From NCBI GenBank assembly GCA_951406725.2, contig OX597825.1:44206001-44270000 (forward strand): DNA of 64,000 nucleotides, read 5' to 3'. This stretch comes from Octopus vulgaris. Taxonomy: Eukaryota. A program made the position numbers and the translations under genes. The notes under the pieces are model-generated. The model searched no databases and had not been told where the DNA came from. It was given only the letters and a program-made list of their open reading frames with translations. Positions 4,629 through 64,000 of this stretch are shown piece after piece (within the stretch, counting starts at the first letter, position 1; the number at the start of each line of letters is the position of its first letter).

Positions 4629-4679
<51 letters not shown>

Positions 4680-4681
4680 TT

Positions 4682-5427: not shown

Positions 5428-5463
<36 letters not shown>

Positions 5464-5492: not shown

Positions 5493-5555
5493 AGATAAAA
5501 CTCTGAGTTTCAGATGCCGAAGTGGAAATCCACAATACCATCTCTTCGGTTATCT
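5493..5555 (-). ncRNA. Type I hammerhead ribozyme motif
   Basis: Minus strand: agataa-CCGAAGA-gatg...catct-GAA-ACTCAGAGT-T-ttatct; 6-bp stem I, GUU site; lies in a (TA)n-flanked segment at 5460-5825. Confidence 0.65.
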
Positions 5556-12157: not shown

Positions 12158-12476
12158 CAGAGATGTACTTGCATAGCAAGTGACTTGATCTGAGATCGTG
12201 TGCTGGAACGAAAACAGTTGCAGCGTTGAAGGTGTTTATAAGCCATTTAAGAAACACACAAAAACCGTTAGATTCACTTCAACATTTAAATTTAATTTGT
12301 CAAAATATTTTCGTCGCTTTGAGACCGCGACCTGTTAGCACGATATTTTTGTCAGTGAACAGGTCGCGGTCTCAAAGCGAGGAAAATATTTTGGCAAATT
12401 AAATTTAAATGTTGAAGTGAATCTAACGGTTTTTGTGTGTTTCTGAAATGGCTTACAAACACTTTCCACGCTGCAA
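12153..12476. mobile_element. Fold-back HHR element, family 2
   Basis: 119-bp inverted arms 12218-12336/12358-12476, (TA)n on both flanks, HHR at 12350-12396. Confidence 0.8.
12350..12396 (+). ncRNA. Hammerhead ribozyme motif with G3-C8 core
   Basis: tgtca-GTGAACA-g-gtcgc ggtctcaaa gcga(g; c in left arm)-GAA-AATATT-T-tggca (tgaca in left arm). Confidence 0.6.
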
Positions 12477-13139: not shown

Positions 13140-13604
13140 CACTACGGTTATTTAATGTAAAGTCTTCCTCAAATCACTCTCGCTATTTACTCTCTTCCAA
13201 GAACATTTTCACTCACTCTTATCTCTTAGCTTGCCATACATTTTACTCATGTATCTATCAGCGTGATAGACAGAAACAAATAATACATCGCCATCGCCAT
13301 CGCATTCTATTGTCTACCTGTCAACACACACACAGTGAATTACTTTCATTTTATTCGTTGCACATTGTGTGTGTGCGTGTGGTGTAAACCACATTAAGAA
13401 AAGCATTTGACATACACACCAGAATGTGAGTTTTCTGTAAATTCTGCTTAATTGGAGTTTAAATTTGAAAAACTGAACCTGGCATGACCCGATGCATTCT
13501 ACTCTTAAAAATGCTAGGTAAATTGTAATTGAAGAAATCCTATATTGTAGATTTCTATAAGTGACAAAGGGAGGTAGATAAAATCTGCCTTTTATAATAA
13601 GAGA
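13140..13604 (-). mobile_element. Probable Helitron 5' portion abutting the satellite
   Basis: Minus strand starts A|TCtcttattataaaaggcag, a Helitron-type 5' terminus; no 3' hairpin/CTAG found. Confidence 0.35.
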
Positions 13605-16600: not shown

Positions 16601-19600
16601 CTAGGTGTTGATGTCGATAATATTTTAAGATTACTGTCGCTAAGGTGCAGGAATTTATGACGATAATATATTAAGATTACTGTCACTCATGTCTCGGAGT
16701 TGATGACGATAATATATAAAGATTACTGTCACTAGTGCCTATTGGTTGATGATGATAATATATTAAGATTACCATCACTAATATCTAGAGGTTGATGAAG
16801 ATAATATCTGAAGATTACCGTCACAAACGTCTAGGGGTTGATGACGATAATATATTAAGATTACCGTCACTAATGTCGAGAGTTTCATGACGAAAATATA
16901 TTAAGATTACCGTCACTAAAGTCCAGGATTTGATGACGATAACATATTTAGATTACCGACACCAATGTCTAGGGGTTGATGACTATAATATATTAAGATT
17001 ACCATCACTAATGTCTAGGAGTTGATGACGATAATATATTAAGATTACTGTCAGAAATGTGTAGGAGTTGATGACGATAATATATTAATATTACGGTCAA
17101 TGATGTCGAGGGGTTGATGACGATAATAGATTAAGATTACCGTCAGTAATATGTAGGATTTGATGACGATAACATATTAAGATTACCGTCACTAATGTCT
17201 AGGTGTTGATGACGATAAAATTTTAAGACTACCGTCGCTAAGTTGTAGGAATTTATGACGATAATATATCAAGATTACCGTCAGTAGTGTCTAGGGGTTG
17301 ACGATGATAATATATGAAGATTACCGTCACTAACGTCTAGGGGTTGATGACGATAATATATTAAGATTACCGTCACTAATTTCGAGGGGTTGATGACGAT
17401 AATATATTAAGATTAGCGTCACTAATGTCTAGGGATTGATGACGATAATGTATTAAGATTACCGTCATTAAATTCCAGGATTTGATGAAAATAATATATT
17501 TAGATTACCGACACCAATGTCTAGGGGTTGATGACGATAATATATTAATATTTCCGTAACTAATGTCCATGGGTTGATGAAGATTATATATTAAGATTAC
17601 CATCACTAATGTCTAGGGATTGATGACGATAATATATTAAGATTAACGTCATTAATTTGCAGGAGTTGATGACGACTATATATTGCGATTATCGTCACTA
17701 ATGTCTAGGTGTTGATGACGATAATACTTTAAGATTACTGTTGCTAATGTGTAGGAATTTATGACGATAATCTATCAAAACTACCTTCACTAATGTCTCG
17801 GAGTTGAGGACGGTAATATATCAAGATTACCGTCAGTAGTGTCTATTGGTTGATGATGATAATATATTAAGATTACCATCACTAAAATCTAGAGATTGAT
17901 GAAGATAATATATGAAGATTACCGTCACTAACGTATAGGGCTTGATGACGATAGTATATTAAGATTACCGTCACTAATGTCCAGGAGAAGATGATGATAA
18001 TATATTCAGATTACCGTCACTGATGTCTAGGGGTTCATGACGATAATATATTAAGATTTCCGTCAGTAATATGTAGGAGTTGATGACGATAATATATTAA
18101 GATTACGGTCACTAATGTCTAGGATTTGAAGACGATAATATATTAAGATTACCGTCACTAAAGTCTAGAGGTTGATAACGATAATATATAAAGATTACCG
18201 TCACTAAAGTCTAGAGTTTGATAACGATAATATATTAAGATTACCGTCATTAATGTCCAGGAATTGATGACTATTATATATTATGAATACCATCACTAAT
18301 GTCTAGGAGTTGATCACGATAATATATTAAGATTACCGTCACTAATGTCCAGGAGATGATGACGATAATATATTAACATAACCGTCAGAAATGCGTAGGA
18401 GTTGATGACGATAATATATTAATATTACCGTCACTGATGTCGAGGGGTTGATGACGATATTATATTAAGATTACCGTCAGTAATATGTAGGAGTTGATGA
18501 CGATAATATATTAAGATTACCGTCACTAAAGTCTAGGGTTTGAGGACGATAATATATTAAGATTACACTCAATAATGTCCAGGCGTTGATGACTATAATA
18601 TATTAACTTTACCGTCACTTATGTCTAGTGGTTGATGACGATGATATATTAAGATTACCGTAAGTAATGTCTAGGGGTTTATGACGATAATATATTAAGA
18701 TTACCGTCACTAATGTCAAGGAGTTGATGACGACAATATATTAAGATTACCGTCACTAATATCAAGGATTTGATGAAGACAATATATTAAGATTACCGTC
18801 ACTAATGTCAAGGAGTTGATGACCATAATATATTAAGATTACCGTCACTAACGTCTAGCGGTTGATGACGATGATATATTAAGATTACCGTCACTAATGT
18901 CCAGGAGTTGATGACTATAATATATTAAGATTACCGTCACTAATGTCTAGGGGTTTATGACGATAATATATTAAGATTACCGTCACTAATGTCAAGGAGT
19001 TGATGACGACAATATATTAAGATTATCGTCACTAATGTCTAGGATTTGATGACGATAATATATTAAGCTTACCGTCACTAATGTCTAGGGGTTTATGACG
19101 ATAACATATTAAGATTACCGTCACTAATGTCAAGGAGTTGATGACGATAATATATTAAGATTACCGTCACTAATGTCAAGGAGTTGATGACGATAATATA
19201 TTAAGATTACCGTCACTAATGTGTAGGAGTTGATAACGTTAAGATATTAAGATTACCATCACTAAGATTTAGGAGTCGATGACGATAATATATTAAGATT
19301 ACCGTCAGTAATGTCTAGGAGTTGATGACGATAATATATTAAGATTACCGTTACTGAAGTCTAAGGGTTGATGACGATAATATATTAAGATTACGGTCAC
19401 TAATGTCTAGGATTTGAAGACGATAATATATTAAGATTACCGTCACTAAAGTCTAGGGGTTGTGGACGATAATATATTAAGATTACCGTCACTAATGTCT
19501 AGGGGTTTATGACGAAAATATATTAAGATTACCGTCACTAATGTCAAGGAGTTGATGACCATAATATATTCAGATTACCGTCACTAATGGCAAGGAGTTG

Positions 19601-22366
19601 ATGACGATAATATATTAAGATTACCGTCACTAATGTCAAGTAGTTGATAACGTTAAGATATTAAGATTACCATCACTAAGATTTAGGAGTTGAGGACGAT
19701 AATATATTAAGATTACCGTCAGTAATGTCTAGGAGTTGATGACGATAATATATTAAGATTACCGTCACTATAGCCAGGAGATGACGATAATATATTAAGA
19801 TTACCGTCAGAAATGTGTAGGAGTTGATGACGATAATATATTAAGATTACCGTTACTGAAGTCTAAGGGTTGATGACGATAATATATTAAGATTACGGTC
19901 ACTAATGTCTAGGATTTGAAGACGATAATATATGAAGATTACCGTCACTAAAGTCTAGGGGTTGAGGACGATAATATATTAAGATTACCGTCACTAATGT
20001 CCAGGGGTTGATGACGATGATATATTAAGATTACCGTCACTATTGTCCAGGAGTTGATGACTATAATATATTAAGATTACCGTCACTAATGTCTAGGTGT
20101 TTATGACGATGATATATTAAGATTACCGTAAGTAATGTCTAGGGGTTTATGACGATAATATATTGAGATTATCGTCACTAACGTCAAGGAGTTGATGACG
20201 ACAATATGTTAAGATTACCGTCACTAATGTCAAGTATCTGATGAAGACAATATATTAAGATTACCGTCACTAATGTCTAGGATTTGATAACGATAATATA
20301 TTAAGCTTACCGTCACTAACGTCAAGGAGTTGATGACGACAATATATTAAGATTACCGTCACTAATGTCAAGGATTTGATGAAGACAATATATTAAGATT
20401 ACCGTCACTAATGTCTAGGATTTGATAACGATAATATATTAAGCTTACCGTCACTAACGTCTAGGGGTTTATGACGATAATATATTAAGATTACCGTCAC
20501 TAATGTCAAGGAGTTGATGACCATAATATATTAAGATTACCGTCACTAACGTCTAGCGGTTGATGATGATGATATATTAAGATTACCGTCACTAATGTCC
20601 AGGAGTTGATGACTATAATATATTAAGATTACCGTCACTAATGTCTAGGTGTTTATGACGATGATATATTAAGATTACCGTAAGTAATGTCTAGGGGTTT
20701 ATGACGATAATATATTAAGATTACCGTCACTAATGTCAAGGAGTTGATGACGACAATATATTAAGATTACCGTCACTAATGTCTAGGATTTGATGACGAT
20801 AATATATTAAGCTTACCGTCACTAATGTCTAGGGGTTTATGACGATAATATATTAAGATTACCGTCACTAATGTCAAGGAGTTGATGACCATAATATATT
20901 AAGATTACCGTCACTAATGTCAAGTAGTTGATGACGATAATATATTAAGATTACCGTCACTAATGTGTAGGAGTTGATAACGTTAAGATATTAAGATAAC
21001 CATCACTAAGATTTGGGAGTCGATGACGATAATATATTAAGATTACCGTCAGTAATGTCTAGGAGTTGATGACGATAATATATTAATATTACCGTCACTA
21101 TAGCCAGGAGATGACGATAATATATTAAGATTACCGTCAGAAATGTGTAGGAGTTGATGACGATAATATATTAAGATTACCGTTACTGAAGTCTAAGGGT
21201 TGATGACGATAATATATTAAGATTACGGTCACTAATGTCTATGATTTGAAGACGATAATATATTAAGATTACCGTCACTAAAGTCTAGGGGTTGAGGACG
21301 ATAATATATTAAGATTACCGTCACTAATGTCCAGGGGTTGATGACGATGATATATTAAGATTACCGTCACTATTGTCCAGGAGTTGATGACTATAATATA
21401 TTAAGATTACCGTCACTAATGTCTAGGTGTTTATGACGATGATATATTAAGATTACCGTAAGTAATGTCTAGGGGTTTATGACGATAATATATTGAGATT
21501 ACCGTCACTAACGTCAAGGAGTTGATGACGACAATATATTAAGATTACCGTCACTAATGTCAAGGATTTGATGAATACAATATATTAAGATTACCGTCAC
21601 TAATATCTAGGATTTGATAACGATAATATATTAAGCTTACCGTCACTAATGTCTAGGCGTTTATGACGATAATATATTAAGATTACCGTCACTAATGTCA
21701 AGGAGTTGATGACCATAATATATTAAGATTACCGTCACTAATGTCTAGGTGTTTATGACGATAATATATTAAGCTTACCGTCACTAATGTCTAGGGGTTT
21801 ATGACGATAATATATTAAGATTACCGTCACTAATGTCAAGGAGTTGATGACCATAATATATTAAGATTACCGTCACTAATGTCAAGGAGTTGATGACGAT
21901 AATATATTTAGATTACCGTCACTAATGTGTAGGAGTTGATAACGTTAAGATATTAAGATTACCATCACTAAGATTTTGGAGTTGATGACGATAATATATT
22001 AAGATTACCGTCAGTAATGTCTAGGAGTTGATGACGATAATATATTAAGATTACCATCACTTACGTCTAGGAGTTGATGACGATCGCATATTAAGAAGAT
22101 TTATAGATATTGATCCCCGTCAATAATGTTAAGTGGTTGATGGCGATAATATATTAAGATTCCCGTCACTAATGTCTAAAGTTTTGATGACGATAATATA
22201 ATAAGTTTACCGTCACTAATATCTAGGTGTTGATGTTAATATATTAAGGTTACCGTCATTAATGTCTAGGAGTTGATGACGATAATATATTAAGTTTACT
22301 ATCACTAATGTCTAGGGGGTGATGACGATAATATATGAAGATCACCGTTATTAATATTACCGTCAT
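13605..22366. repeat. 46-bp minisatellite/satellite array, ~190 units, self-complementary unit
   Basis: Consensus attaccgtcactaatgtctaggagttgatgacgataatatattaag; attaccgtca pairs with tgacgataat; higher-order block repeats present. Confidence 0.97.
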
Positions 22367-22369
22367 TCG

Positions 22370-24600
22370 ATATTTTTTAAAGTCACATTATATTCTCCGT
22401 TATTACTCACTGTAGAACCTTATCGTAGCCCAATTGTTTTACTATAACATGAATTCCCTTCATATACTTTATTTTAATATTTCCTTTATGATAACTGAAG
22501 CACTTTCTATATATAGAGTTATTATGCAAACAACGTCTCTCTATACTTTTTCAGTATGCGTTTGTATATATGAACTTATACCGGTTTTTTTTCTTATTTA
22601 CTCCTATGTTTTTGCACATATGCGTATGCTTTTATGTGTGCTATGTGCGTACATATGTATGTTTACCTGTACATGCATACATTTGAGTATATACACCCAA
22701 TATGTGTGTATATATACGTATATTTATATGCTGATGTATATGGGTGTTGTGTGCACATTCATATGGATATGTGTAAGATACACCATCTTCTGCATGTGTT
22801 TTTTGTATAACTATGTATTTGTAAATGAGTATACATATACATTTCTACTTGTATGTATACCCTTATATGCCTATGTATATGCATTCTCATTTTCTCTCCC
22901 CACCCCTACCAACATAGCTACTCCACTAAATACTTGTATTTGCTATTAGTTATTCCATCTTATATACTTCCATTAAGTATATTTTCAATACTTGTTTATA
23001 TACAGTTATAGTGTGGTTGTGCATGTTTACATCTATATCTGCATATCTATGTATACCTCTATGTGTATCTATGTTTGCATATATTTGTCTTTTTGTGTAT
23101 ATGTATGTTTATATGTGTGTAAGTACGTGTATATGTATGTGTATGTAAGTGCATATATATATGTCTGTGTATATATATGTATATGTATTCGTATGTATGT
23201 GTATATGTATATGCGTGTTTATTTACATATGCATGTGTGTATTTGTACTTGTATATACATGTGTAATGGATATGTATATATTTGTGTATATATATGTGTA
23301 TGGATATGTATATATTTGTGTATATATATGCTTATATGTGTATGTATGCCTATATTTACATATTTGATTGCTTATACATTCACCCTGATCCATATGATAA
23401 GCATTTTATCCTATAATTTTGTAACTTTATATATATCCCTACATGTATCTATCTACATGTAGATCATAATGATAATTATTTTTAATATATTTACATGCAT
23501 TGAACCCATATAACGTGTATTTTTATTCACCACGATCATATATAGCCATACCATATCACACAATACTCAGCAATAATAATACTCTCGTCATAACTTTTTA
23601 TATATATAAAATATTCCTTTTGTATAACATTATCCTACACATTCAATACATTTATCTTTATCTTTTTTCTATTTTTAACATTCACTTCTCGCATTATATC
23701 CCAAACTTGATCATTATTATTAGTTTTTATTCTTATTTATCTCCCCTACGCTAATAAAATTTTGTTTCATTTTCACCCTCTCTAATTTATTACCTTATCG
23801 CTTCTATATTTCTCTTCTTACTACATCTAATATGTTCTCTTATCTCTATTCTTAACAATGACTTCGTAAGTATTTACAACCTTAATCATCATATTTCCAT
23901 TTGAATTACTACTTTTCCTCATCTCCTTTATTATACTTCCATGTTACCTTAATATGAATCTTGAGTAAACAAGAGTCCTTAATCCACTTCCACTTCATTC
24001 TTTTTAATTCTTCCCCCTCCCCCATATTTTCACAAATAACATCATTAACTTTCTTGTTTTACAAACAATTTTTTTACGCTAAACTTTTATCTGTTTATGC
24101 TTATTTATAAATAAATACCAAGTATTGTTTTTAACGGTTAGATTTAATTTACATTTGGTAATGTTTTCTCATTGGACATTTCTCTTACTTACTCACCATA
24201 TGCTGCACATATGGATATTTAGTTAGCAAATCTATACTAATCTATAGAGAGAGTGTTATCGGTATCTCTATATTTATATCATCATCTAACCGTTCATCTG
24301 TCAGTAGTGGTTTAATATTTGACATCGCACACATATAGGAACAGATAAACAGGAAACTCATAGATCCAACTTCTCTGTTCTTTTTTTTAAAGTTACTATT
24401 ATCATTTTCTCTCTGCACTGATGAGTACTATGATAATTTTCAAATTCATATATTAATTAATATCTATGTACGAAACAATTGTATGCATGAATAAACTTCT
24501 TACAATTTTTAACATCTTATCTCCTCCATTTTTGGCAAATGTGATTGGATTTGTAGAACTTCATTCCATAAATTAATCATATACTTAATATTCTAATACA
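22370..24600 (+). mobile_element. Long low-complexity segment ending in an HHR, probable PLE 3' UTR/pLTR
   Basis: Decayed (TA/TG)n then T/C-rich strand-biased DNA leading to the HHR at 24412-24490; architecture resembles 51370-52741. Confidence 0.45.
24412..24490 (+). ncRNA. Type I hammerhead ribozyme, canonical core
   Basis: tgca-CTGATGA-gtac...gtac-GAA-ACAATTGT-A-tgca; palindromic stem III, GUA site. Confidence 0.85.
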
Positions 24601-41420: not shown

Positions 41421-41482
<62 letters not shown>

Positions 41483-41491
41483 ATATATATA

Positions 41492-44261
41492 TGATTTTGA
41501 TTTTGATTTTGATTTTTCCAGTTTCAGCTTATGAGCTGTGGCCATGCTGGGGCACCGCCATTTGGTGTTGCTACTTGGTTTCACTTCATGAAGGTTTCTA
41601 GCAACTGCTATTTGGTGCATGAGAGAGTTCGATGCAGCTGCCCTCATCTGCCCCTCCTGCCGTCAAGTTGGTTCATCTGGGACACCTGACAGGAAGAGAT
41701 CCAGCTTCATTTTAAAGACATCTGTATCCACCCCATGCAGGTCTCTCAGGTTCTTCGGGAGGATATTGAAGAGCTGTGGGCCTCGGAAGCCCAGGCTATC
41801 ACATAATCTTGTCCTACATCTTGATGGCAAGTTTGGAGTCCTAGGCACCACGCAGTGGCGCCCAGTTCTGGCATTTGCGTAACTCTCGATGCCAAAGTTC
41901 AGGACACTTCCCTCCAGGATCTTCCAGATGTATATTATGGCATATCTTTCCCGCCTACGCTCCAGGGAATATAATTTTAATTTCCTGAGCCTTTCCCAGT
42001 AGTTTACATTCTGCATAGAGGCTATCTTCTTCGTGTAGCTACGTTGGCTCGCCTCGAGCTCTGTGATCAACTTGACACTGGATGGTGACCATAACTGAGA
42101 GCAATAGTCAAAGTGGCTTAGGACAAGTGTCCTCCAGAGGACCATCATGGTTTCTTGTTCTCTTGTTCTAAAGGTTCTAAGGATCCATCCGGCCAGTCGT
42201 CTACATTTCAGTGCCAATTTAGCAACATGTACACGAAAGGTCGCGTCATCACTCATGTAAATACCTAGGTCACGCACTGATTGTGCCTCTGGGATTGCTA
42301 TTCCTCCGGGTCCAGTGTATTCATTGGGTATTGCATTTAGTTTTGCATGCTGATAGTATAGAGCTTGAAACTTTTCAGCATTGAACTGCATGCTATTCTT
42401 TTCGGCCCACTTGTATATTTTGTCTAGCTCACATTGCAGGTGTTTAGTGTCCTCAGGGTTCTGTATTGCCTGTGAAACTTTTGTATCATCTGCATAACTT
42501 GTGATCGTGGCTCTCTGCGTGGCTGAGGGCATGTCTGAGAGGGCCATTATGAACAGTAGTGGTCCCAGAACAGTGCCCTGCGGAACACCGCTCACTATTT
42601 GCGTGTTAATGGAAGTGGCCCCATTGGCCACTACCACCTGACTTCTATCTTTCAGAAAGTCATGAAGCCATTCTCCCAGTTTTCCAACTATGTTGAGATC
42701 ACGCAGTTTGTGACATATCATTCCATGATCGACTTTATCAAAGGCCTTTGCAAAGTCGAGATATATCACTTCCACATTTGAGTGGTTGAGCAGCCGTTTT
42801 AGCACCCAGTCATAGTGTTGTAGGAGCTGAGTTAAACAGCTTCTCCCTGGTCGGAAACCATGTTGGGTGTCGGGCAGCAAGTCATTTTCTTCAAGGAAGG
42901 TGATCAGCTTCCTTCTGACTATTCGTTCCATGACCTTGCTGATGTGTGAGGTCAGAGAGATAGGTCTATAGTTCTTGGCTTCCGCTCTGCTACCTCCTTT
43001 ATGAATGGGGCATATTTTACCTTCATTCAGTTTTCTTGGAAGTTTGCCAGCTGCAAGGAAGCTCTGAAAGAGTAACTGCAGTGGTCTTGCTAGGACTCTC
43101 TTACATGCTTTTAGGAGGATTGCCGGGAATCCATCGGGGCCAGTAGCTGAGTCTGTTTTCATTTCATCTATAGCCTTGATTACATCGTCTTCCTTTATAT
43201 CGATGTAATCTATCGTCGCCGCCTCTGATTTTATATCTGCAGTGGTAAAAAAGTCAGTTGGATTGGTGATTTGGAGATGCCCAAGAAGTGGAGTGAAAAC
43301 ACTCTTGAATTGCTCATTCAGTATCTCACTTACCCTCATTGGTTTTCCTGTAAGTGTGCCGTCCTCTTCGAGGAGTGGCCCTATTCTACAGTGCACCGTA
43401 GCTGTTTCTTTGGCATACCTGTAGAAAGCTCTGGAGTTAGATTTTATGTTGTCTATAGCCCAGGCTTCTTTGTCTGCTCTTTCCTTTTCATGGGAGAGTT
43501 TCAGACATTTTTCGATTTCCAACAGTTTTATTTTTAGGCGGGACTTTTCACTGCTTTCAATCTGTTTGTTTAGGCGATTTGAAAATTTTGGACGCCGTCT
43601 CATTAGAATTTTCCTCTCTCTGGGGATTTTGTTCGTGTGTACAGTGGCCTTTCTCTCTGGGACATATTTGTAGCATATGGCTTGCATTACAGACATGAAT
43701 TGTTGAAGTTTCACGTCGATGTCTGGCGAGGAGAGACATTTAGGCCAGTTTTGTTTGAGGATCTCTTTCTCAATTTGTTTCCAGTTTGCCTTATGGTAGT
43801 TCAAGCTGGAAAGATTCTGGGGGTTTCTTGTAGGCTGCATGTCCGTGCTCTCTTTTGGCCCGTACATGGTCAGCTCTATCATGTTGTGATCCGAGAGTAG
43901 TGTCGGTGTCACTTTCACATTATGGATGAGATCCATGTCATTTGTGAAGCAGAGATCCAGTGTGTTACCTGCCCTGGTTGGTTGGAGTATTACCTGCTCC
44001 ATGTACAGGGTGTTGATGAGGTTCAGGAGGGACCTCGCCTGTCCTCGTTCACATCTTGTCATTCCTGAGAGAGAAAGGCCCTCGGGCCATCTGACATTTG
44101 GCAGATTGAAGTCTCCCATAAGAAGTACACTTATGTGTTGTTCTAATGTGGTTAGAACTTCTTCTATTTTTATAAGGCAGTCTTCAAACTTGCCCACATG
44201 GCTTGGGGCATCTGGAGGGCGATATGTAGCACACACAACTACATCAAGTTGCCTAATATGT

Positions 44262-44265
<4 letters not shown>
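41492..44265 (-). mobile_element. 5'-truncated CR1-group LINE inserted in a microsatellite
   Basis: APE + RT ORF, 3' stem-loop tail ggcggtgccccagcatggccacag and (AAAATC)n end; flanked by (TCTA)n/(TA)n. Confidence 0.95.
41663..44265 (-). CDS. LINE ORF2: partial APE endonuclease plus reverse transcriptase (~865 aa open)
   Basis: YRPP, MGDFN, LDLCFTN, SDHN; GPDG, YRPISLTS, QHGFRPGRSC, YLDFAKAFDKV, GVPQGTVLGPLLF, YADDTK. The ORF track's N-terminal ~27 aa is microsatellite read-through. Confidence 0.93.
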
Positions 44266-44299
<34 letters not shown>

Positions 44300-44731
44300 T
44301 ATAATAATAATAATAATGACAATAATAATATTAGGGAGTAAATCCAAACTTACAGGGTAAAAATTAGATTTAGAATTAAATCTAATTTTACAGTATAAAT
44401 ATATATATTAAATTAGAGATAAAACGACTATTAGGCAAATCAAACAGTGAAAAACATAAACCAAAACATAGAAATAAAATTAGTTAATATAATATACAAA
44501 AAATATATAATTTGAAGTTAAAATTTAAAAAAAAATTTTAATTATTAATTTATACTTATAAATTTATATATATGGATATATAATTCGTAAATAAGAGCAA
44601 TCGAAAAAATTTCTAATGCCAAATAAGCCGAAAAATTGGACATATTGTCCATTAACCATATAATTTTTTCACAATACGCACGCTACTCAGAAAAAGGTCG
44701 ACAGAAATTTCTAAAAAAATTCCATTATTAC

Positions 44732-44788
44732 CATATCGGACCGATTTCAGGATTAGCTTATAACAGCCCTCCCTTCTTCAGTGATACA
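44732..44788 (-). ncRNA. Type I hammerhead ribozyme (left-arm copy)
   Basis: Reverse complement of 45364-45420 with few substitutions. Confidence 0.8.
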
Positions 44789-45363
44789 TGTGGCAAAAGA
44801 AATAAATGAGAAACTTACTCATACCCATGGAAGAAGCAAACACTAAGTCATGAGTACAATTAAGTACCCCAAATACATCCAAAATAGAAATACTCCAGCC
44901 TATTCGAGACACGTGCGATTTGAACTGAGGCTCTCACAGAGTGAAAGAGTCCGGAAGTGAACGCTTAAATTTATATCAAATGTAGGATAAAATATTTTTC
45001 GAAAAAAATCCTTTTAGAAAAAAATTTTATCAATGGCCAGCATATTAAAAAATACCTTTAAAGGTTAAATTTATAAACAATTGCCCTTATTTACGAATTG
45101 TTTATAAATTTAACCTTTAAAGGTATTTTTTAATATGCTGGCCATTGATAAAATTTTTTTCTAAAAGGATTTTTTTCGAAAAATATTTTATCCTACATTT
45201 GATATAAATTTAAGCGTTCACTTCCGGACTCTTTCACTCTGTGAGAGCCTCAGTTCAAATCGCACGTGTCTCGAATGGGCTGGAGTATTTCTATTTTGGA
45301 TGTATTTGGGGTACTTAATTGTGCTCATGACTTAGAAGTTTCTCATTTATTTCTTTTGCCACA

Positions 45364-45420
45364 TGTATCACTGAAGAAGGGAAGGCTGTTATAAGCTAAC
45401 CCTGAAATCGGTCCGATATG
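45364..45420 (+). ncRNA. Type I hammerhead ribozyme, canonical core
   Basis: tgtatca-CTGAAGA-aggg...ccct-GAA-ATCGGT-C-cgatatg; GUC site. Confidence 0.85.
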
Positions 45421-45714
45421 GTAATAATGGAATCTTTTAGAAATTTCTGTCGACCTTTTTTTTTAGTAGCGTGCGTATTGTGAAACAATTATATGGTTAA
45501 TGGACAATATGTCCAATTTTTCGGCATATTTGGCATTAGAAATTTTTTCGATTGCCCTTATTTACGAATTGTTTATAAATTTAACCTTTAATGGTATTTT
45601 TTAAAATTTTTTCGAAAATAATTTTTTCGAAAAATATTTTATCCTACATTTGGTATATATATATATATATTTGGTATATATATATATTTATTATTTTTAT
45701 TTTTATTATTATTT

Positions 45715-45780: not shown

Positions 45781-45885
45781 ATTATTTCATATTTTTATTT
45801 TTATTTTTTTATTTTTTTATATTTTTTTTTTTAATATATAACTATCAAAAAGTATTAAAAAGTTTAATATAAGATAAAAAGTAAA

Positions 45886-45983
45886 ACCACTACGATCGTT
45901 TCATGCCCATAACCTAATTCGAATAACAATAATTTAAATTCAATTAATAATTTGAATTATGGTTATAGTCCATCTTCAGGTTA
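45886..45983 (-). ncRNA. Type I hammerhead ribozyme with long stem II
   Basis: Minus strand: aac-CTGAAGA-tggactataacc...ggttatgggcat-GAA-ACGATCGT-A-gtggtt. Confidence 0.8.
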
Positions 45984-47165
45984 ATGATAATATTTAAATA
46001 AATAATCAAATATATTTAAACAATTTTTTAAAAATAAATAAATAAATAATAATTTTTCTTATAAGAAACTCTATTATCAAAGTAGAAACTTTAACGATTA
46101 TGATTATGTCATAACAATCGATTATAATGTTAAATATTAATTTTTAAGTAATAATTTTTAAGGTAAGAATAGATAGAAAATGTATTTATTCAGATATAAT
46201 ATGGTTTTAAAAAAACATAATAAACCCACAAATAATCAAATTTCAGTTATAGTCAATATCTAATTACCTAAATATTTAACAAAAAACACTATTCATATTA
46301 TTAAATTTAATTTCAAGTCAAATAATTATATAATACTTGAATAATAACTGAATTATCAATGAATATATATAAATGTATACAAACATAAGAATTAAAATCT
46401 AAAATTATCTCTATCAATAAATATATATGCACGTATAATAAATTAATTATTCATTATTACTTATAAATATATTAAAAAATTGAAGATGAAAAAGCTAATT
46501 GTAAACAAACAAACTATCTTAAAAGAACGCTATAACTAATTAACGATCCATATATCTCGTTGGCTAAATAATAACTTACAAAAACCGTATAGTTAAGAAT
46601 TAAAAGGAAATAAAAAATACTTAATGAAATAATCAATCCGTAGTTATATAGTGAAATAATCAATCCGTAGTTATATAGTATCCAATATATGCTACGAATA
46701 TATCTATCAATGGAAAAAATGCTATTACTAATTATCCACTGAAGAAATCAATATATATGTTATAATAGCAATTATAAAATATTTAAAATAGCTCTCAACA
46801 AATATAGTTATTAAAGACTAAAATTTATGCTATCAATACATGTCTATACATGAAACCTAACTTTAAAAAACTCGTATAACTGTTAACGATCTATATATCT
46901 CTTTGGCTAAGTAAAGTCTTACGAATAAACGTAGAGTTAAAATCTAATAATTATATAAAAAAAACTATGATAACCAAATCATTACATAACAATCAGTATT
47001 TATATAAATACAAAATTATACAATAATACATATTAAAATATTTAAATTTTAAAAATTTAAAAATCTTAAATATAAATATATACTTAGCTTTGCAAGGTTT
47101 AACTAATTTATAACAGAAATATAACAAAATATAAACTTAACTCTAGTATAAGATAAGTATATATA

Positions 47166-47578: not shown

Positions 47579-48275
47579 GTATATATATATATTATATATC
47601 ATATTATTAATATTCAAAATAAATACTAATCAATTGATTATTTCATTAAGAAATTTTTTATTTCAATTTAATTCTTAACTATACGGTTTTTGTAAGTTAT
47701 TAATTAGCCAACGAGATATATGGATCGTTAATTAGTTATAGTGTTCTTTTAAGATAGTTTGTTTGTTTACAATTAGCTTTTTCATCTTCAATTTTTTAAT
47801 ATATTTATAAGTAATAATGAATAATTAATTTATTATACGTGCATATATATTTATTGATAGAGATAATTTTAGATCTTAATTCTTATGTTTGTATACATTT
47901 ATATATATTCATTGATAATTCAGTTATTATTCAATTATTATATAATTATTTGACTTGAAATTAAATTTAATAATATGAATAGTGTTTTTTTTTGTTAAAT
48001 ATTTAGGTAATTAGATATTGACTATAACTGAGATTTGATTATTTGTGGGTTAATTATGTTTTTTTAAAGCCATATTATATCTGAATAAATACATTTTCTA
48101 TCTATTCTTACCTTAAAAATTAATATTTAACACTATAATCGATTGTATGACATAATCATAATCGTTAAAGTTTCCAGTTTGATAATAGAGTTTCTTATAA
48201 GAAAAATTATTATTTACTTATTTCTTTAAAACATGTTGTTTAAATATATTTGATTATTTATTTAAATATTATCAT

Positions 48276-48374
48276 TAACCTGAAGATTGACTATAACCAT
48301 AATTTGAATTATTAATTGAATTTAAATTATTGTTATTCGAATTAGGTTATGGGCATGAAACGATCGTAGTGGTT
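48276..48374 (+). ncRNA. Type I hammerhead ribozyme (right-arm copy)
   Basis: CTGAAGA at 48280-48286; GAAACGATCGTA at 48357-48368. Confidence 0.8.
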
Positions 48375-48418
48375 TTACTTTTTATCTTATATTAAACTTT
48401 TTAATACTTTTGATAGTT

Positions 48419-48720
48419 ATAGCCTGTACTTCAGAGGCCCACAACTCTTCAGTATCCTCCCGAAGAACCTGAGGGACCTGCATGGGGTGGATGCGGAGGT
48501 CTTTAAAGTAGGACTGGATCTCTTCCTGTCAGGTGTCCAGGATGAACCAACTTCACGGCAGGAGGTGCAGATGAGGGCAGCTGCATCAAACTCTCTCATG
48601 CACCAAATGGCAGTTGCTAAAAAGCATTCGTGAGGTAAAATCATGTAGCAACACCAAATGGTGGTGCCCCAGCATGGCCACAGCTCAAGAGCTGAAACTG
48701 GAAAACATAAACCAACATAA
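48419..48720 (+). mobile_element. CR1-group LINE 3' fragment (same family as 41492-44265)
   Basis: SLYFRGPQLFSILPKNLRDLHGVD...QDEPTSRQEVQMRAAASNSL; same tail ggtgccccagcatggccacagctc..gctgaaactgg. Confidence 0.92.
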
Positions 48721-48722
48721 AT

Positions 48723-48803
<81 letters not shown>

Positions 48804-49067
48804 TTATAAGTTAATAATAAAAAATTTTTTTTTTAAATTTTAACTTTAAATTTAAATAATTTAAATTTTGAATTTTATATTTTATATATTTTTTGTATAT
48901 TATATTAATTAATTTTATTTCTATGTTTTGGTTTATGTTTTTCACTGTTTGATTTGCCTAATAGTGGTTTTATCTCTAATTTTATATATATATATATATT
49001 TATCTACATGTCTGCCTGGCTGGCTGTCTGTCTGTTTGGCTGTATATATAAATATATATATATATAT

Positions 49068-49368
49068 AGTTATCGCCAAGCTAACATGACAGTCCAAGAA
49101 AATAGGACGAATGCTGCTCTTCATTAGCTACAAGAGGCCATCACCTCTAGCTAGCTATGTGACACACGAACCTGTGTCCATTATAACCTTCGAACAGGGG
49201 AGGTCAACAGCTTCCCCTTGATGGTTTGGCACCTACAGACTAGTTTCGGGGTAGTTGCCCCTTATCAATGTAGAGTAGCCAAACCCAGCAGGTGTCGCTG
49301 TTAGCTTGGTGATAACAATTAATATCCATTACCGCTGCTGCAGTCTCCTTTAGAGAGATTTAGAAATA

Positions 49369-49375
<7 letters not shown>
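49068..49375 (-). mobile_element. HHR element family 1, second locus
   Basis: Homologous to 4682-5427; short inversion gttatcgccaagctaaca / tgttagcttggtgataac; (TA)n flanks. Confidence 0.8.
49233..49273 (-). ncRNA. Minimal hammerhead ribozyme, intact, U3-A8 core
   Basis: Minus strand: ctaca-TTGATAA-gggg caacta cccc-GAA-ACTAGT-C-tgtag; all helices perfect, GUC site. Confidence 0.88.
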
Positions 49376-49404
<29 letters not shown>

Positions 49405-49407
<3 letters not shown>

Positions 49408-49830
49408 TCAAGTAGTTAGCGTGAAGATTTTATCCTATTTTTAAATTATAAATTTCACCGGCGTATATTCAATACTGAATTTTTATTCCAAACAAGCACG
49501 TTGTTACCGAAATGGAATTCGAAAAAGCCCGCCGTTTACATAGATGTATAAGGGGTGAACAGTTCTATATGCTACGGTGGATACGATGGTTGTTCGTCTG
49601 GTATGTTGATTTTGTCCATTCATTATAAATCTTGAATCATGCTGGCACCGATGAGTAAAGGACGCAAATACTGCGTTAATTACGAAATCACTGGTGATCT
49701 GCAGCTATATTCTGTTTTTAAATGACTTGCTTCGAGACTTGCATTCGGTACGATATGTTTATTTTGATAATTTTGACTTTAAGAGCCCCTCCTAGCGTGC
49801 GGCATTTATGTGTTATATATATTATGTGTT
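49405..49830 (+). mobile_element. HHR element family 5
   Basis: (TA)n-flanked; starts with a short inverted piece atcaagtagttagcgtgaa; HHR at 49641-49705; homologous to 62580-62955. Confidence 0.8.
49641..49705 (+). ncRNA. Type I hammerhead ribozyme (U4C core)
   Basis: gctggca-CCGATGA-gtaa...ttac-GAA-ATCACTGGTGAT-C-tgcagc; AUC site. Confidence 0.78.
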
Positions 49831-49841
49831 ATATATATAAA

Positions 49842-49871
<30 letters not shown>

Positions 49872-49873
<2 letters not shown>

Positions 49874-50686
49874 CCGGAGTAAACACATAAATGTGAAACA
49901 AGGTGGAAAAAGAGTACTCAAATACCAGTAGTAGAGTAATATGCTTTATTTAAGCAGAGAAATTCAACAAAATCTGTACTCTGAGTTCTCGTTGCCGTTC
50001 ATCAGACAGTTTTGCTAGAATGGAACATATATATTAATTCAATCTATACTTACAAACGCTACACCTTTAAAGAATGGACTTGTTTGATTGCTTTAGAAAA
50101 ACGGTCATTTCGAGCGATAAACAAAAAGGTCAAAATATATGTATATATATATAAAATTATAAAATTATAAAATCCGAGGAAAATACCGAGAAAACCTGTT
50201 GCCGTTAATGAAGACAGTACAAATTAATGCATAGAAATTAAACCTGTTACAAATACTGCAATACATATTTATATTAAAATCCACATATATATATCAACAT
50301 ACATATTTCTGCAATACGCGCATCCTTTTGTGTATGTTGATATATATATGTGGATTTTAATATAAATATGTATTGCGTATTTGTAACAGGTTTAATTTCT
50401 ATGCATTAATTTGTACTGTCTTCATTAACGGCACTTTTTCCTCTATTTTCCTCGGATTTTATAATTTTTATAAGTTTTTATATATATATACATATTTTTG
50501 ACCTTTTTGTTTATCGTCGAAATTGACCGTTTTTCTAGGGCAATCAACAAGTCCATTTCTTTAAAGGTGTAGCTTTGTAAGAGTATAGATTGAATTAATA
50601 TATATGTTCCATTCTAGCAAAAACTGTTGATGAACGCAACGAGAAACTAGATAACAGATTTTGTTGAATTTTCTGCCTTAAATAAA

Positions 50687-50687
<1 letters not shown>
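49872..50687. mobile_element. Fold-back HHR element, family 6
   Basis: Inverted arms ~49944-50303/50331-50687; HHR-like motifs at 49974-50009(-) (ctgt-CTGATGA-acggcaacga-GAA..ctcagagt-a-cag) and 50624-50657(+). Confidence 0.8.
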
Positions 50688-50762
<75 letters not shown>

Positions 50763-50827
50763 TATATATATAACACATAATATATATAACACATAAATGC
50801 CGCACGCTAGGAGGGGCTCTTAAAGTC

Positions 50828-50867
<40 letters not shown>

Positions 50868-52003: not shown

Positions 52004-52149
52004 CGTGTGTGTGTCTCTGTGTGTTTGGAGAAGGGGAGAGAGACAAAAAGAGAAAAGGGAAAATAAAAATAAAAATAAAAATAAGGGAGGAAGAGGAGAA
52101 GAAAAAAAATTTTGTGTGTTGATATTTATACCGCTACATATATATACAC

Positions 52150-52730
52150 AGACTTATACATGAAATATTTGAAAGAAAACTTTTTATCGGTTCAAAATGA
52201 ACAACCAAATTACACCATCTTGAAAATAGTATATCATAGGAAAGTTAAAATTAAAGTGACAATTAAAAAGTAAAGATGGAAGTAAATTATAAAAATAATA
52301 ATATAATGTATATAACAGGCAATATATATATATACACATACACACACATATACATATATACACATTCAGACATATACTAAATGTTCTACTATATTAGATT
52401 GTAAATCGAAAGATGCGTCCTTCAATGTCACTATATATATATATATATATACATACATGCTTACACATGAAATATTAGAAAAAAACCCACCTTCTATCGA
52501 ATCAAAATGAACAATCAAATTACACCATCTTGAAAATTGCATATCATAGGAAGGTTAAAATTAGAATGACAATTGGCAAGTAAAGATCAAGTAAATTACA
52601 AAAACAATATAATGTATATAACAGGTAACATATATATATACACACACCTATATATATATATATACACACACATATTAAATGTTCTACTATTTTATATTGT
52701 AAATCGAAAGATTTGTCCTTCAATGTATGT
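52150..52730. repeat. Diverged ~305-bp direct repeat in the PLE 3' UTR
   Basis: caaattacaccatcttgaaaat...atgttctactat...gtaaatcgaaagat...ccttcaatgt present twice (52160-52428 and 52468-52726). Confidence 0.85.
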
Positions 52731-52741
52731 TGAGTAAAGTT

Positions 52742-53923
52742 TCAGCCATTTAATTTGGGGGAGAACTTAGCTATGAAATATTTTTCCATATTCCTCCTGA
52801 AAGAGGTGTCGTTCTTCGGACACTTGTAGAAGGGAAAGATCTTAAATTTTCCTTCTCCACATGTAGCTACATGTGTACTTAGTGGTATTTTGCGTAGTTC
52901 TTCCTGCCGAATATGTCGGTGAATCCTGGCTCGCTGGCACAAAGAATTACCAGTTTCACCTACGTAATTCTCCTTGCACGTGGGGCAGGTTATGCAGTAT
53001 ATGACGTTCTGCGTCTTGCAGTTCATATCTGCATTTACTTTGAATATGTCACCATTTTTAAATCTCATCTCTCTGTTACCCTCTCTGTATTTGTAGGTGG
53101 GGTTGCTGCAGATCCCACATCTACCATCTCCGCACTCTTTTGCAAAGAATTCCGTTTTAGTTTCTGAAGAGAATTTCCCTCTTGTTAGGTGTTTCTTTAG
53201 GTTTTTGTCCTGTCGTCTACTGTTTTTTATGCTATATTTGTTTAATATGTTTTTCATTTTGGGGCTTTGTAAGGCTATTGGTAGGTTTGAATGTATGGTT
53301 TGGAAGATGTTGGTAACTCCAGGGTTGTGTGTGTTTATAAAAGGGATAGTGTTTTCTTTGTTTTTTGTTTTGGGTGTCCTGAGTTGTGCGATGTCTAGTT
53401 TTAATGCTCTTGTGATTCCATTTTCTATTAGTTTAAGGGGGTATTTTTGCTCTAGGAGGAAGTTTTTGAGTTCATCTAGTCTTATAAGTCGTATTTGTGA
53501 ATCAGTTACTATGCTACATATTCGTCGTGCCATACTATATGGGATGTTTCTTTTTGTGTGGGATGGGTGGCAGGAGTGGAAATTTAAGTATTGATGTGTG
53601 TCAGTTTTTTTGTAGTGGATGTCTGTTTTGACGATGGAGTTGTGTATTTTGATGTTGATGTCTAGGAAGGGACGTTCGTTGTGGCTGATATCTATTGTGA
53701 AGTTGATTGATGGGTGCAGCGTATTGAGGATGTTGTGGAATGTTTGTAGGTCCTCTTCTGATCTGTTCCAAAAGATGAAGCAGTCATCGAGGTAGCGTTT
53801 CCACTTTTTCTTGATGTCTTCTCTGAAGTCGTGTTCGAAGACTTTCCCTATTTCATCATATAGTTTGTTCTCCAGGAAACCCATCACCAGGTTGGCATAT
53901 GAAGGTGCGAATTTTGTACCCAT
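52742..53923 (-). CDS. PLE RT C-terminal half, Zn-knuckle and GIY-YIG endonuclease
   Basis: MGTKFAPSYANL, WKRYLDDCF, FLDI, HPSHTKRNIPYS, CGDGRCGIC, NVIYCITCPTCKENYVGET, FSPKLN. Frameshifted upstream pieces (DKGGAIV, GLPKIHK, MRPIVAG) extend to 54640. Confidence 0.9.
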   Translation of the reverse strand: MGTKFAPSYANLVMGFLENKLYDEIGKVFEHDFREDIKKKWKRYLDDCFIFWNRSEEDLQTFHNILNTLHPSINFTIDISHNERPFLDINIKIHNSIVKTDIHYKKTDTHQYLNFHSCHPSHTKRNIPYSMARRICSIVTDSQIRLIRLDELKNFLLEQKYPLKLIENGITRALKLDIAQLRTPKTKNKENTIPFINTHNPGVTNIFQTIHSNLPIALQSPKMKNILNKYSIKNSRRQDKNLKKHLTRGKFSSETKTEFFAKECGDGRCGICSNPTYKYREGNREMRFKNGDIFKVNADMNCKTQNVIYCITCPTCKENYVGETGNSLCQRARIHRHIRQEELRKIPLSTHVATCGEGKFKIFPFYKCPKNDTSFRRNMEKYFIAKFSPKLNG

Positions 53924-54640
53924 AGCTGTGCCTTTTATCTGTCGGTATGTCTTGTTGTTGAATGAGAATGTGTTTTCTTCGAGTATTAGTTGGTGGCTTG
54001 GGTGATAAAGTTTGTCTTGAAGCGTTCGTCTATAAGTTCTCTGTATTTTTCTATTGATTGTTTTATAGCTTCTAGACCTAGGGTGTGTGGTATGTTTGTG
54101 TATAGATTTGTGACATCAAAGCTTGCATTATGGTGTTTTTCGGGACTGTATTTGGAATGTGTGTGAGGAAGTCTATGTCATCCCTTATGTAGCTTGGTAT
54201 CTGTGGGCATAAAGGTTTGAGGAGTATATCTATGAAGTGGCTTAGTTGTTGTGTTGGTGCCTGGGGTCCTGCCACTATTGGTCTCATTGTGAGGTCTGCA
54301 GGCCTTTGTACTCTTATATAGTGGTTCCTTTATGGCTCTCTGTATTTCAGAGCTTTTATGAATTTTAGGTAATCCAAAGAAGTTGCTTTCTTTGGTTCGT
54401 GAGTTGCATAGATAGTCTTTCTCCTTATCTGTAAAGGAGTCCTGATATTCATTGACCAAAGTTCTAATTTTTTTTATTGTTGTTTTCTCCGGTGGTGTTG
54501 GTTCCTCTTTATAGTATGTCTGGTTGTTCAGTAACTCCAGTATCTTTTCTTTGTAGTAATCTGTGTCCATAATTACTATTGCTCCACCTTTGTCAACTTC
54601 TTTTATAATGATTGATTTGTCATTTTTCAGTTTTTGTAGG

Positions 54641-55246
54641 GCTAACACTGGACATCCTAAAAGGACACACACATGGAACAATATACAAATGGATAGAAAT
54701 CAACACATAACCTACAACAAACATCGAGGAAATCGAAACCACACAAACACCAACCACATGCAACCCCACAAATTTACAAGATGGATAAAAACAACTCCCA
54801 CTATCAATACAATACAAACACAATACATGAACCATCCACCTACCCACAAAGAAACCTAAACCCCAGTAATAGATATTGGCTCAACAAACACAGAAGATGG
54901 GAAGAAAACAACTACCAAAGACAAAACAACACATACAGACCACACAGACCACCCCAACTACAAGAAAACCTAAGAACTGAAAATGGAATTTGGAGACGTA
55001 ACAACACAACCCATTTTTTAGGGAGAGGATACTTCAACCATACTCCAGACCCAATACACCAAAAATTCCGGATGAACTCACAAAACACATAGACCCCAAA
55101 ATAATAAACTTATCTAAAAGAGAACTTGACGAAAATGAAATGAACCTACTACTAAAAGGCCTCAAATTTACACCTACACCCACTCCAAACCTCATAGAAC
55201 TAAAAACTGATATAGACAACTTCAGCCACTACCTCCGCTTTATGGA
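54641..55246 (+). pseudogene. Inverted N-terminal segment of the same PLE ORF
   Basis: IINLSKRELDENEMNLLLKGLKFTPTPTPNLIELKTDIDNFSHYLRFME is the conserved PLE N-terminal motif, on the opposite strand. Confidence 0.85.
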
Positions 55247-56250
55247 AATAATACAGCATAAAATAATTTACTGCAGTAGGTTTTGCCGATTTGAGAACGT
55301 ATTAATTTAAAATTAAAACTAAAATGAGGGTGAAAAAATCAGATATTTATTTGATAATATCAATTTAACACCAGTGGTCTAGCATATTAAAAAACTGAGG
55401 TTCAGTAAATAGTGTTACATACATATAAGAGGGATTATCACAATGTGGACACCCTAATGCTAGAAGTAGATCCGCTATGGTCTTACCACTAAGAATTGTC
55501 CTCTAGAAAATTTAGCAAACACCAGAAACGTAAGCGAGCAAGACAAATGAAAAGTAACAAAAATATAGATTAATCATAAATATAGATTAATCATGAATCA
55601 TAAAATATAGATTAATCATCCCACTTATATGTATGTAATACTATTTACTGAACCTCAGTTTTTTAATATGCTAGACCACTGGTGTTAAATTGATGTTATC
55701 AAATTAATATCCGACTTTTTCACCCTCATTTTAGTTTTAATTTTAAATTAATACGTCTCAAACCGGCAAAAGCTACTGCAGTAAATTATTTTATGCAGTA
55801 TTATTTCTGGTAATTTAGCGCGCCCCAAAGCGAGGACCTTTGAAAAATAACTACAAGTGTAATAGGTAGAACTACATACATATTCGACCTCGTGTGGATG
55901 TCTGGTGTGTAGTTCTGCAAATTATATTTGTATGGACGATCATACTGAAGACCTACAGATACATTGCTTAAGTAAAATTACGTAATTTGTTAATAGTGAA
56001 ACATTGTTTATGATTAATCTATATTTTTGTTTGTTCGCTTACGTTTCTGGTGTTTTATAAATTTTCTAGAGATCAATTCTTAGTGGTAAGACCATAGCGG
56101 ATCTACTTCTAGCATTAGGGTGTCCACATAGTAGTAATCCCTCTTACATGTATGTAATACTATTTACTGAACCTCAGTTTTTTAATATGCTAGACCACTG
56201 GTGTTAAATTGATGTTAATTTTTCACCCTCATTTACATTTTAATTTTGAC
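55245..56250. mobile_element. Fold-back plus 1.2-mer HHR element, family 7
   Basis: Unit ~55629-56147 (~519 bp) with its start repeated at 56148-56250; inverted arm 55245-55578; HHR at 55938-56015. Confidence 0.88.
55938..56015 (+). ncRNA. Type I hammerhead ribozyme, canonical core
   Basis: gatcata-CTGAAGA-ccta...tagt-GAA-ACATTGT-T-tatgatt; 7-bp stem I, GUU site, predicted cleavage after 56008. Confidence 0.82.

Positions 56251-56311
<61 letters not shown>

Positions 56312-61694: not shown

Positions 61695-61700
<6 letters not shown>
60660..61700 (+). pseudogene. R4/Dong-like non-LTR retrotransposon 3' remnant
   Basis: ELSAFNKIVSHNAFAV...LDIKTRKVLT...HSNSDTDRIYV...RG; GYAFAIQEQEIATKY; degenerate CRLC...H...CP...RHD zinc knuckle. 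Confidence 0.78.
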
Positions 61701-62355
<655 letters not shown>

Positions 62356-62432: not shown

Positions 62433-62579
62433 CCATTTCTATTCATTTTTATAATTTAATATATACTCATGTAACTTGTAAAGTGTTTTCCTCTGCAAAA
62501 TTGGGTATTAAACTGTGGAACCAGAGAAAGATTGGATGTTTTCATCCTTATTTTCCCTGGATTATACATAAATATATAT

Positions 62580-62955
62580 TATTTATATTGAGGGCATTAC
62601 TATACATAAATGCCATACGCTAGGAGGGACTCTTAAAGTCAAAATCTACCAAAATAAATAAGCACATAGTATCGAATACGAGGGAATGCAACTCCCGAAG
62701 CGAGCCCTTTAAAAACAGAATTCGGGCTCGCTTCGAGAGTTGCATTCCCTCATATTCGATACTATGTGCTTATTTATTTTGGTAGATTTTGACTTTAAGA
62801 GTCCCTCCTAGCGTGTAGCATTTATGTGTAGTAATGCCCTCAATATAAATACATTATATTTAAGAGGAAAATTGATGGAGAATTCTCTTTATGAGGTTTT
62901 CACGCTAACTACTTGATAAATTCTTATAAAGATTTTATCCTATTTTTAAATTGTA
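62580..62955. mobile_element. Fold-back element, family 5, second locus
   Basis: ~128-bp inverted arms 62580-62707/62724-62851; shares ttttgactttaagag.ccctcctagcgtg and gattttatcctatttttaaatt with 49405-49830. Confidence 0.85.
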
Positions 62956-63046: not shown

Positions 63047-64000
63047 CTCCTCGCTGGAATGACATCACTTGAACAGAGACAGACAGAGTCCTTGTTGGCT
63101 CTCACACGCAAGTCTTTCATGGAGCAAGCAGTGCTTCGGCCAACAAGAGGTGAGAATGTCTTGGACCTCTGTTTCACAAGCAACCCGATGCTCATCCACA
63201 ACATAATGGTAACACCTACAATTCTCTCAGATCACAACTTAGTAGAGGTAATGATATATGGTATGAGAGAGTTAGTTGAGACGCAGCCATTAGAAAATAC
63301 CACAGGCCTATCCAGTCTAAACTTCCATAAGGCAAACTGGAAGAAGATCAACGAAGAGATCCGAAAACATGACTGGAGTGACTTCATCACCACACAAGAC
63401 ACCAACACACATTTCCAACATTTCATGACAACAATACAGAACATATGCCATAGGTTTGTCCCGGAGAAAAAAGCCAGCGGGCATAGGAACGTTATTCCCA
63501 GAGACAGGAAAATACTTATGAGGCGAAGAGCTAAGCTCTCGAAGCAACTGAATGCACGGCAGAGAAACAATGAGGGACTCCACCTGAAGCTTTTTGAAAC
63601 GGAAACTGCACTCAAACTTTCCTATGAGAAGGAGAGGGCAGAGAGAGAAGCCAGGGCCATAGAGAATATTAAAACAAACCCTAAAGCCTTCTTTAAATTT
63701 GCGAAAGAAACCACCTCGGTACACTGCAAGATTGGCCCACTCTTTGATAAAAAGGGCTCTCTAACTGAGGACCCCCAAGGGATAAGTGAAATACTAAAGG
63801 AACAGTATAAAAGTGTGTTCACATCCCCTCTGGGGCACATGCAAATCACAAACCCAGAAGTTTTCTTTGATGCCACAACACTCCAAAACCAAACAACAAC
63901 CATCGACCACATAGACATAACAGAGAGGGATGTAATATCTGCCATAGAAGAAATGAGAATAAACTCAGCTGCTGGACCAGATGGATTCCCAGCAGTCCTC
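63047..64000 (+). mobile_element. CR1-group LINE, diverged subfamily, running off the window
   Basis: MEQAVLRPTRGENVLDLCFTSN...ILSDHN...NFHKANWK...NIKTNPKAFFKFAK...SAAGPDGFPAVL, colinear with the 41663-44265 ORF. Confidence 0.92.

Follow-up and report, generated by a model that had tools for sequence, protein, structure and literature searches.

A hammerhead-bearing palindrome in Octopus vulgaris with the architecture of a non-autonomous Penelope-like element

Insertions of Penelope-like elements (PLEs) have been characterized as typically comprising an inverted 5′ copy, a partial tandem, a tail of 30–40 bp at one end and a bias toward (TA)n targets, and non-autonomous forms consisting of the pLTR only are known (extracts of PMC8557442 and PMC3846280). 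Self-priming has been proposed as the origin of PLE palindromes (PMC3846280). With a purified PLE, both target strands were cut and extended, reverse transcription (RT) began at two internal sites, which delimit the tail, and hammerhead cleavage proved dispensable, according to the extract of PMC11167929. Two further systems are close. In Schistosoma mansoni, pairs of hammerheads on opposite strands, 100–700 bp apart, have been ascribed to truncated PLEs (PMC4209133). Animal non-LTR retrozymes are described as tandem hammerhead repeats that are expressed as circles (PMC7229834); they appear to derive from PLE pLTRs, and one of nine retrozyme dimers tested cleaved in vitro (bioRxiv 10.64898/2026.07.22.740005). 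For the retrozymes of mussel, coral and axolotl, the RNA is described as ligated into a circle.

Here we analyze a palindrome of ~1.1 kb in a 64,000-nt stretch of Octopus vulgaris DNA (“the window”; contig OX597825.1, positions 44,206,001 to 44,270,000), to which all coordinates below refer. The locus (44582–45653) has the structural hallmarks of a non-autonomous PLE: a hammerhead, a partial tandem with an inverted copy, a one-ended tail and a (TA)n target. As in the EN+ PLEs (Penelope/Poseidon, Neptune, Naiad) and their pLTR-only derivatives (e.g., Chlamydomonas MRC1), the inverted 5′ copy stands head to head with the partial tandem (PMC8557442; PMC3846280; PMC11167929), and the one-ended tail, the microsatellite target, the type I hammerhead within the repeat and the two preferred 3′ ends are likewise shared with EN+ PLEs as these sources portray them. 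Unlike those elements, the locus has no ORF, its tail measures 83–103 nt rather than 30–40, and its inverted arm is a full unit instead of a truncated one. The architecture is already known; what sets the locus apart is the length of its tail and an inverted arm that spans a full unit.

The resemblance to animal non-LTR retrozymes, as far as their published outline goes, lies in a non-coding unit of low GC content that carries a single type I hammerhead, a head-to-tail junction, abundance and a PLE ORF nearby. The unit length of 471–497 nt exceeds the 170–400 nt given for retrozymes in one source (PMC7229834) and falls within the 51–972 bp given in another (bioRxiv 10.64898/2026.07.22.740005), and in contrast to the “active” retrozyme dimer there is only one hammerhead per strand. 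Like the S. mansoni pairs, the two hammerheads lie on opposite strands, 590 bp apart, with a long helix II and a 5-bp helix I; unlike them, helix III is here a longer palindrome of 4–5 bp, and the likeness is a structural one (extract of PMC4209133).

Architecture of the locus

Four parts follow one another across the palindrome, i.e., an inverted unit (44582–45082), a 13-nt loop, a direct unit of 471 nt and a re-entry of 83 nt, and the arms pair around the loop (44582–45082 with 45096–45570). By self-comparison, the left arm (44582–45082, minus strand) is an inverted full unit that lacks a tail. Identical AATT motifs stand at its two ends (as reverse complement), and these ends join as they do at 45570|45571, so that the arm is made up of a 497-nt unit plus a 4-nt overlap. 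Its outer (3′) end stops 4–7 nt before one of two family ends described below (end A). At the center, the last 20 nt of an upstream unit (45080–45099, plus strand) supply the loop (45083–45095), and the head-to-head junction shows 3 bp of microhomology. The direct full unit (45100–45570, plus strand; 33% GC) is followed by a 3′ tail (45571–45653, plus strand) that represents the first 83 nt of a next unit and terminates at the second family end (end B); in the coordinates of the first copy the tail extends over 103 nt, given a 19-bp deletion. A sequence-only reading of this DNA had proposed that the right part re-enters its own start (45080 = 45551) and that the left arm is one full inverted monomer whose ends join as in the right arm. 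Both proposals stand, the former with 96% identity between 45080–45136 and 45551–45607 at a spacing of 471 nt. In the ORF list of the window, no ORF of at least 120 aa overlaps the palindromic element.

The outer ends of the palindrome both abut TA tracts. On the left, a TA-rich tract (44565–44581) is the likely target, and an AT-rich repeat (44384–44582), matched at 80–82% by 11080–11266 and 48783–48998, terminates at the junction. On the right, (TA)n occupies 45654–45692, and a 21-bp tandem duplication (45648–45692) takes in the last bases of the element. Because both ends lie within TA tracts, a target-site duplication cannot be distinguished at the palindrome.

The arms differ at 13 places, one of them a 26-bp stretch absent on the right (at 45335/45336), a deletion that accounts for the unit lengths of 497 nt (left) and 471 nt (right). 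All 13 differences fall in the outer 320 bp, and the inner 181 bp (44902–45082 and 45096–45276) are identical (P = 0.003 under an even spread, with the boundary picked post hoc). Conversion between the arms is one possible reading of this identity; six other palindromes that were scored showed no clear gradient from center to edge. Between the tail and the first copy, the 19-bp deletion is accompanied by seven further changes, a level similar to that between the arms. One allele is common to both arms and not found in the tail, which would fit later arm-to-arm conversion near the center, though it sits in an A/T run where the alignment is uncertain.

We further compared the arms at 14 sites at which the left arm departs from most of the public contigs (taken from the best 40 of 70 variants listed). 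The right arm carries the left-arm allele (i.e., the family-minority allele) at eight of these sites and the family allele at six, and those six minority alleles are hence private to the left arm. Judging from these alleles, both arms appear to stem from one source lineage and to have diverged later on both sides, a pattern that argues against a library chimera.

Hammerhead motifs and neighboring elements

A motif scan found one type I hammerhead with a complete core in each arm: at 44729–44786 in the left arm (minus strand; core at 44781, predicted cut after 44734) and at 45366–45423 in the direct unit (plus strand; core at 45371, predicted cut after 45418). In this motif, stem I has 5 bp, stem II is long and interrupted, and stem III is a palindrome; no such motif arose in 2000 dinucleotide shuffles of the unit. 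In Rfam, the hammerhead had no match at the gathering score; a scan up to E 10 gave 18 sub-threshold matches, with no hammerhead family among them, and the best of these were microRNA hairpin models on the fold-back center. In both arms, the active hammerhead fold is predicted to lie 7 kcal/mol higher than the fold of minimum energy. The earlier description of one intact ribozyme per monomer therefore holds for the core-complete motif in each arm, “intact” being meant in that sense only, with cleavage a prediction.

Variation in the family spares the essential parts of the motif. Among the best 40 of 70 variants listed, seven lie within the hammerhead, where they affect either N7 or stem/loop II and leave the invariant core, stem I and stem III untouched. 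They include a G-to-A and a C-to-T change on the two sides of one stem II pair, the phase of which is not visible. These variants suggest that the hammerhead is conserved at the level of the family. At the locus itself each strand bears one hammerhead, and two same-strand units with a hammerhead each are not found here, so that double self-cleavage cannot free an RNA of unit length from the locus; for copies elsewhere, the longest contig pieces listed (~200 nt) are too short to show same-strand dimers.

The window also holds a decayed, frameshifted Penelope-like ORF with RT and GIY-YIG domains (52742–54699, minus strand), after which comes a 290-bp tandem repeat (52135–52726). Its CxxxxCxxC linker recalls the Neptune clade, and among the best 120 relatives listed, the eukaryote-named ones are from bivalve molluscs and several others are named mollusc symbionts. 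As a parent of the hammerhead unit this ORF is not supported (best blastn E 0.069, no tblastx hit).

Several other repeats of the window were recorded alongside. An unrelated repeat at 55245–56252 has the same layout as the locus, with an inverted arm (55245–55580), a unit of ~519 nt, a re-entry (56137–56247) and (TA)n at 56253; a hammerhead-like motif within it (55945, plus strand) has an unpaired stem II and comes from a relaxed scan that gave 0–3 matches in each of 30 shuffled windows. A solo type I hammerhead motif with a long stem II and a palindromic stem III lies at 24413–24488 (plus strand), its sequence unrelated to the unit of the palindrome. Another 1.1-kb palindrome (83%) stands between TA tracts at 49753–50848, with decayed hammerhead-like motifs recognized by eye in its arms near 49975–50010 and 50625–50655 and related half-sites at 5511 (minus strand) and 24998 (plus strand). 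Further palindromes occur at 4646–5463 (nested inversions, with a related copy at 49104–49405), 12218–12476, 61695–62227 and 62569–62862, with arm identities of 69–95% and most of them beside TA or CA tracts; hammerhead scans of these four found none. Directly to the right of the 1.1-kb hammerhead palindrome, an 800-bp inverted repeat (45837–46637 and 47633–48421) has 95% identity and a 1-kb spacer. To the left of the hammerhead palindrome, a LINE ORF with endonuclease and RT domains (41421–44260, minus strand) is truncated 5′ by (TA)n at 44265; related to this ORF are a fragment at 63162–64000 (67%) and a 3′ fragment (48416–48797). A satellite array with a 46-bp unit occupies 13597–22359 in about 184 copies.

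The repeat family in public contigs

Parts of the stretch are contained in 20 listed public runs (10 studies, four organisms), at most 0.47 of its words in any of them, and none was listed as an RNA run. Four runs were aligned onto one unit at 85% likeness. In the two guessed to be DNA, 5,688 contigs of run X1 (of which ~80% was read) and 4,602 of run X4 fell on a single unit: the hammerhead repeat is very abundant. The two runs guessed to be RNA, a type that is unconfirmed, contributed 359 (X15) and 69 (X20) contigs, to which we gave no weight for or against transcription or circularity; contigs as such do not reveal the form of an RNA. Exact-pattern scans of metagenome contigs and viral contigs returned no match to the repeat, and we found no published description of the family, though Repbase and Dfam lay outside this search and may catalogue it.

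Loose ends of the contigs (the best 24 of 487) point to two apparent ends of the family. At 44588, 25 contigs of X1 and 29 of X4 run a few bases beyond the junction before entering (TA)n (end A), 4–7 nt beyond the left end of the locus; at 45012, 32 and 39 contigs, respectively, run on for ~20 nt before entering (TA)n (end B), ~2 nt or less from the right end of the locus. The two ends are ~80–100 nt apart. What triggers these loose ends is local mismatch, many of them being short (median 13–29 letters), and ends A and B were accordingly read from consensus letters, not from whole copies. The head-to-tail junction at 45080/45082 is found in 106 contigs of X1 (53+53) and 86 of X4 (46+40), and a joint from 45080 back to 44588 is present in X4. 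Since the sixth loose end listed for X4 has only four contigs, ends A and B and the junction dominate, if it was the best that were kept.

Changes of strand recur in these contigs. They make up six of the best 15 of 28 joints, at scattered places and 129–299 nt out of register, and one of them (44677/44976) was found in both DNA runs, which suggests that inversion is a habit of the family. None of the listed contigs spans the flank or the fold-back center of the locus itself. Summed contig depth is higher over the tail than over the body, lowest at 44900–45014 and without a step at the hammerhead site; as it does not give copy number and the variant in the window differs at 44900–45014, we gave it no weight.

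Template and origin of the inverted arm

We propose, with a probability of roughly 0.6, that the locus is one insertion of a ~0.5-kb non-coding hammerhead repeat, likely copied in trans by a Penelope-like RT–endonuclease from an uncleaved linear RNA longer than the unit. Its classification as a PLE-type non-autonomous element is firmer than the linear-template mechanism, and we hold it with high confidence. In the proposed sequence of events, a partial-tandem copy elsewhere would have been transcribed through the unit junction. By analogy with PLE biochemistry, a GIY-YIG endonuclease would have nicked the TA tract, and RT would then have initiated internally on the RNA, at either of the two fixed positions seen as family ends A and B. 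The right part of the locus stops at B with a tail, while the left arm stops at A without one, and the template was continuous across the hammerhead site. Because the outer ends of the locus coincide with the two preferred 3′ ends of the family, what had looked like a “1.2-mer” resolves into a 20-nt remnant, a unit and a fixed tail.

The arms would have been joined head to head through the 3 bp of microhomology. We favor a scheme in which copying began from site B on one target strand and from site A on the opposite one, after which the cDNAs annealed by their 3′ ends, since two cDNAs, one per nicked strand, explain why each outer end is a family end. Alternatively, snap-back of a single cDNA, as the sequence-only reading had it, would yield an identical junction, but offers no reason to stop at end A. 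The common origin of the arms that a snap-back implies is upheld by the minority alleles shared at 8 of 14 sites; any single-source event, however, predicts this equally. Thereafter the arms would have drifted apart, with the inner 181 bp homogenized later. Three observations sit less comfortably with this proposal. The unit has no meaningful match to the one PLE of the window, the tail is longer (83–103 nt) than the 30–40 usual in PLEs, and the inverted arm is almost exactly one unit, with both inner ends within 20 nt of the left-arm end point, a coincidence to which rough arithmetic assigns a chance of ~1 in 10.

That same coincidence is the main attraction of a circular template, on which a unit RNA, released by hammerhead cleavage from tandem copies elsewhere, was ligated to a circle and a PLE RT, starting from fixed sites, copied one turn for the left arm and 1.2 turns for the right part: the left arm then equals one unit within 4 nt as a matter of course. 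The continuity of the template across the hammerhead site and the lineage features common to all three parts are also to be expected from a circle, and animal retrozymes with type I hammerheads are reported to be expressed as circles (PMC7229834). Folded as a circle, the unit surpasses 40 shuffles in stability (z −3.4 and −2.6), but these scores set the circular form against shuffles only and are not specific to circles. The sequence-only reading was right that RT read past the ribozyme junction, on a template longer than one unit; its inference of a circle from this layout was not upheld, as ordinary PLE insertions have the same layout and their partial tandems account for junction and tail alike. 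It had also named randomly permuted ends as support for a circle and fixed ends common to all copies as a refutation. The outcome largely goes against the circle: the ends are common among copies, the best-supported ones entering (TA)n at the two ends of the locus. In addition, the right part would need to run past its own start, the locus contains no dimer that bears two hammerheads on the same strand, and a PLE in vitro preferred unprocessed RNA (extract of PMC11167929). We thus regard a circular template as unlikely, while fixed internal start sites could act on a circle too, which leaves it unproven rather than refuted. A more particular version—a circle of ~0.48–0.50 kb, primed by a dimer of the Penelope-type enzyme from both target strands at two fixed sites 80–100 nt apart, with both products kept head to head at the locus and one of them exactly one turn long—is a still longer shot; if true, it would be the first genomic record linking retrozyme circles to PLE twin priming.

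Three further explanations place the fold-back at the level of DNA or of the data. In one, a unit with its tail was inserted first; the DNA was later broken or nicked close to the junction, folded back on the 3 bp of microhomology and gave rise to an inverted duplication when copied. The near-symmetric hairpin with its 13-nt loop, the alleles shared by the arms, the identical inner 181 bp and the many palindromes of the window are all in keeping with such an event, yet the inverted copy ends at family end A within a TA tract, with neither tail nor host flank, and PLE insertion regularly yields inverted arms; we judge it improbable. A chimera formed by fold-back in the library or the assembly would likewise leave an identical center, and the center and flank of the locus are spanned by none of the listed contigs. 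Such an artifact is nonetheless very improbable, in view of the 13 differences between the arms (including a 26-bp indel), the private changes on both sides and the strand-change joints in contigs of two independent runs, with 44677/44976 in both. Finally, a palindrome with TA on both sides recalls a Foldback or MITE-type DNA transposon with long terminal inverted repeats. However, the right end lies 83 nt beyond the mirror of the left end, each arm contains a hammerhead, and in other copies the inversion points are scattered and unequal and a head-to-tail junction is present; unequal ends and variable inversion points largely refute this explanation, and we give it next to no credence.

As matters stand, the locus adds a further copy to an abundant PLE-type repeat. 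The family to which it belongs offers variants by the thousand, many inversion joints and two ends that appear fixed, and could serve to test how the inverted arms of PLEs originate, i.e., by self-priming or from two cDNAs. It could equally be used to test which template animal retrozymes use for integration, a circle or a linear tandem transcript.
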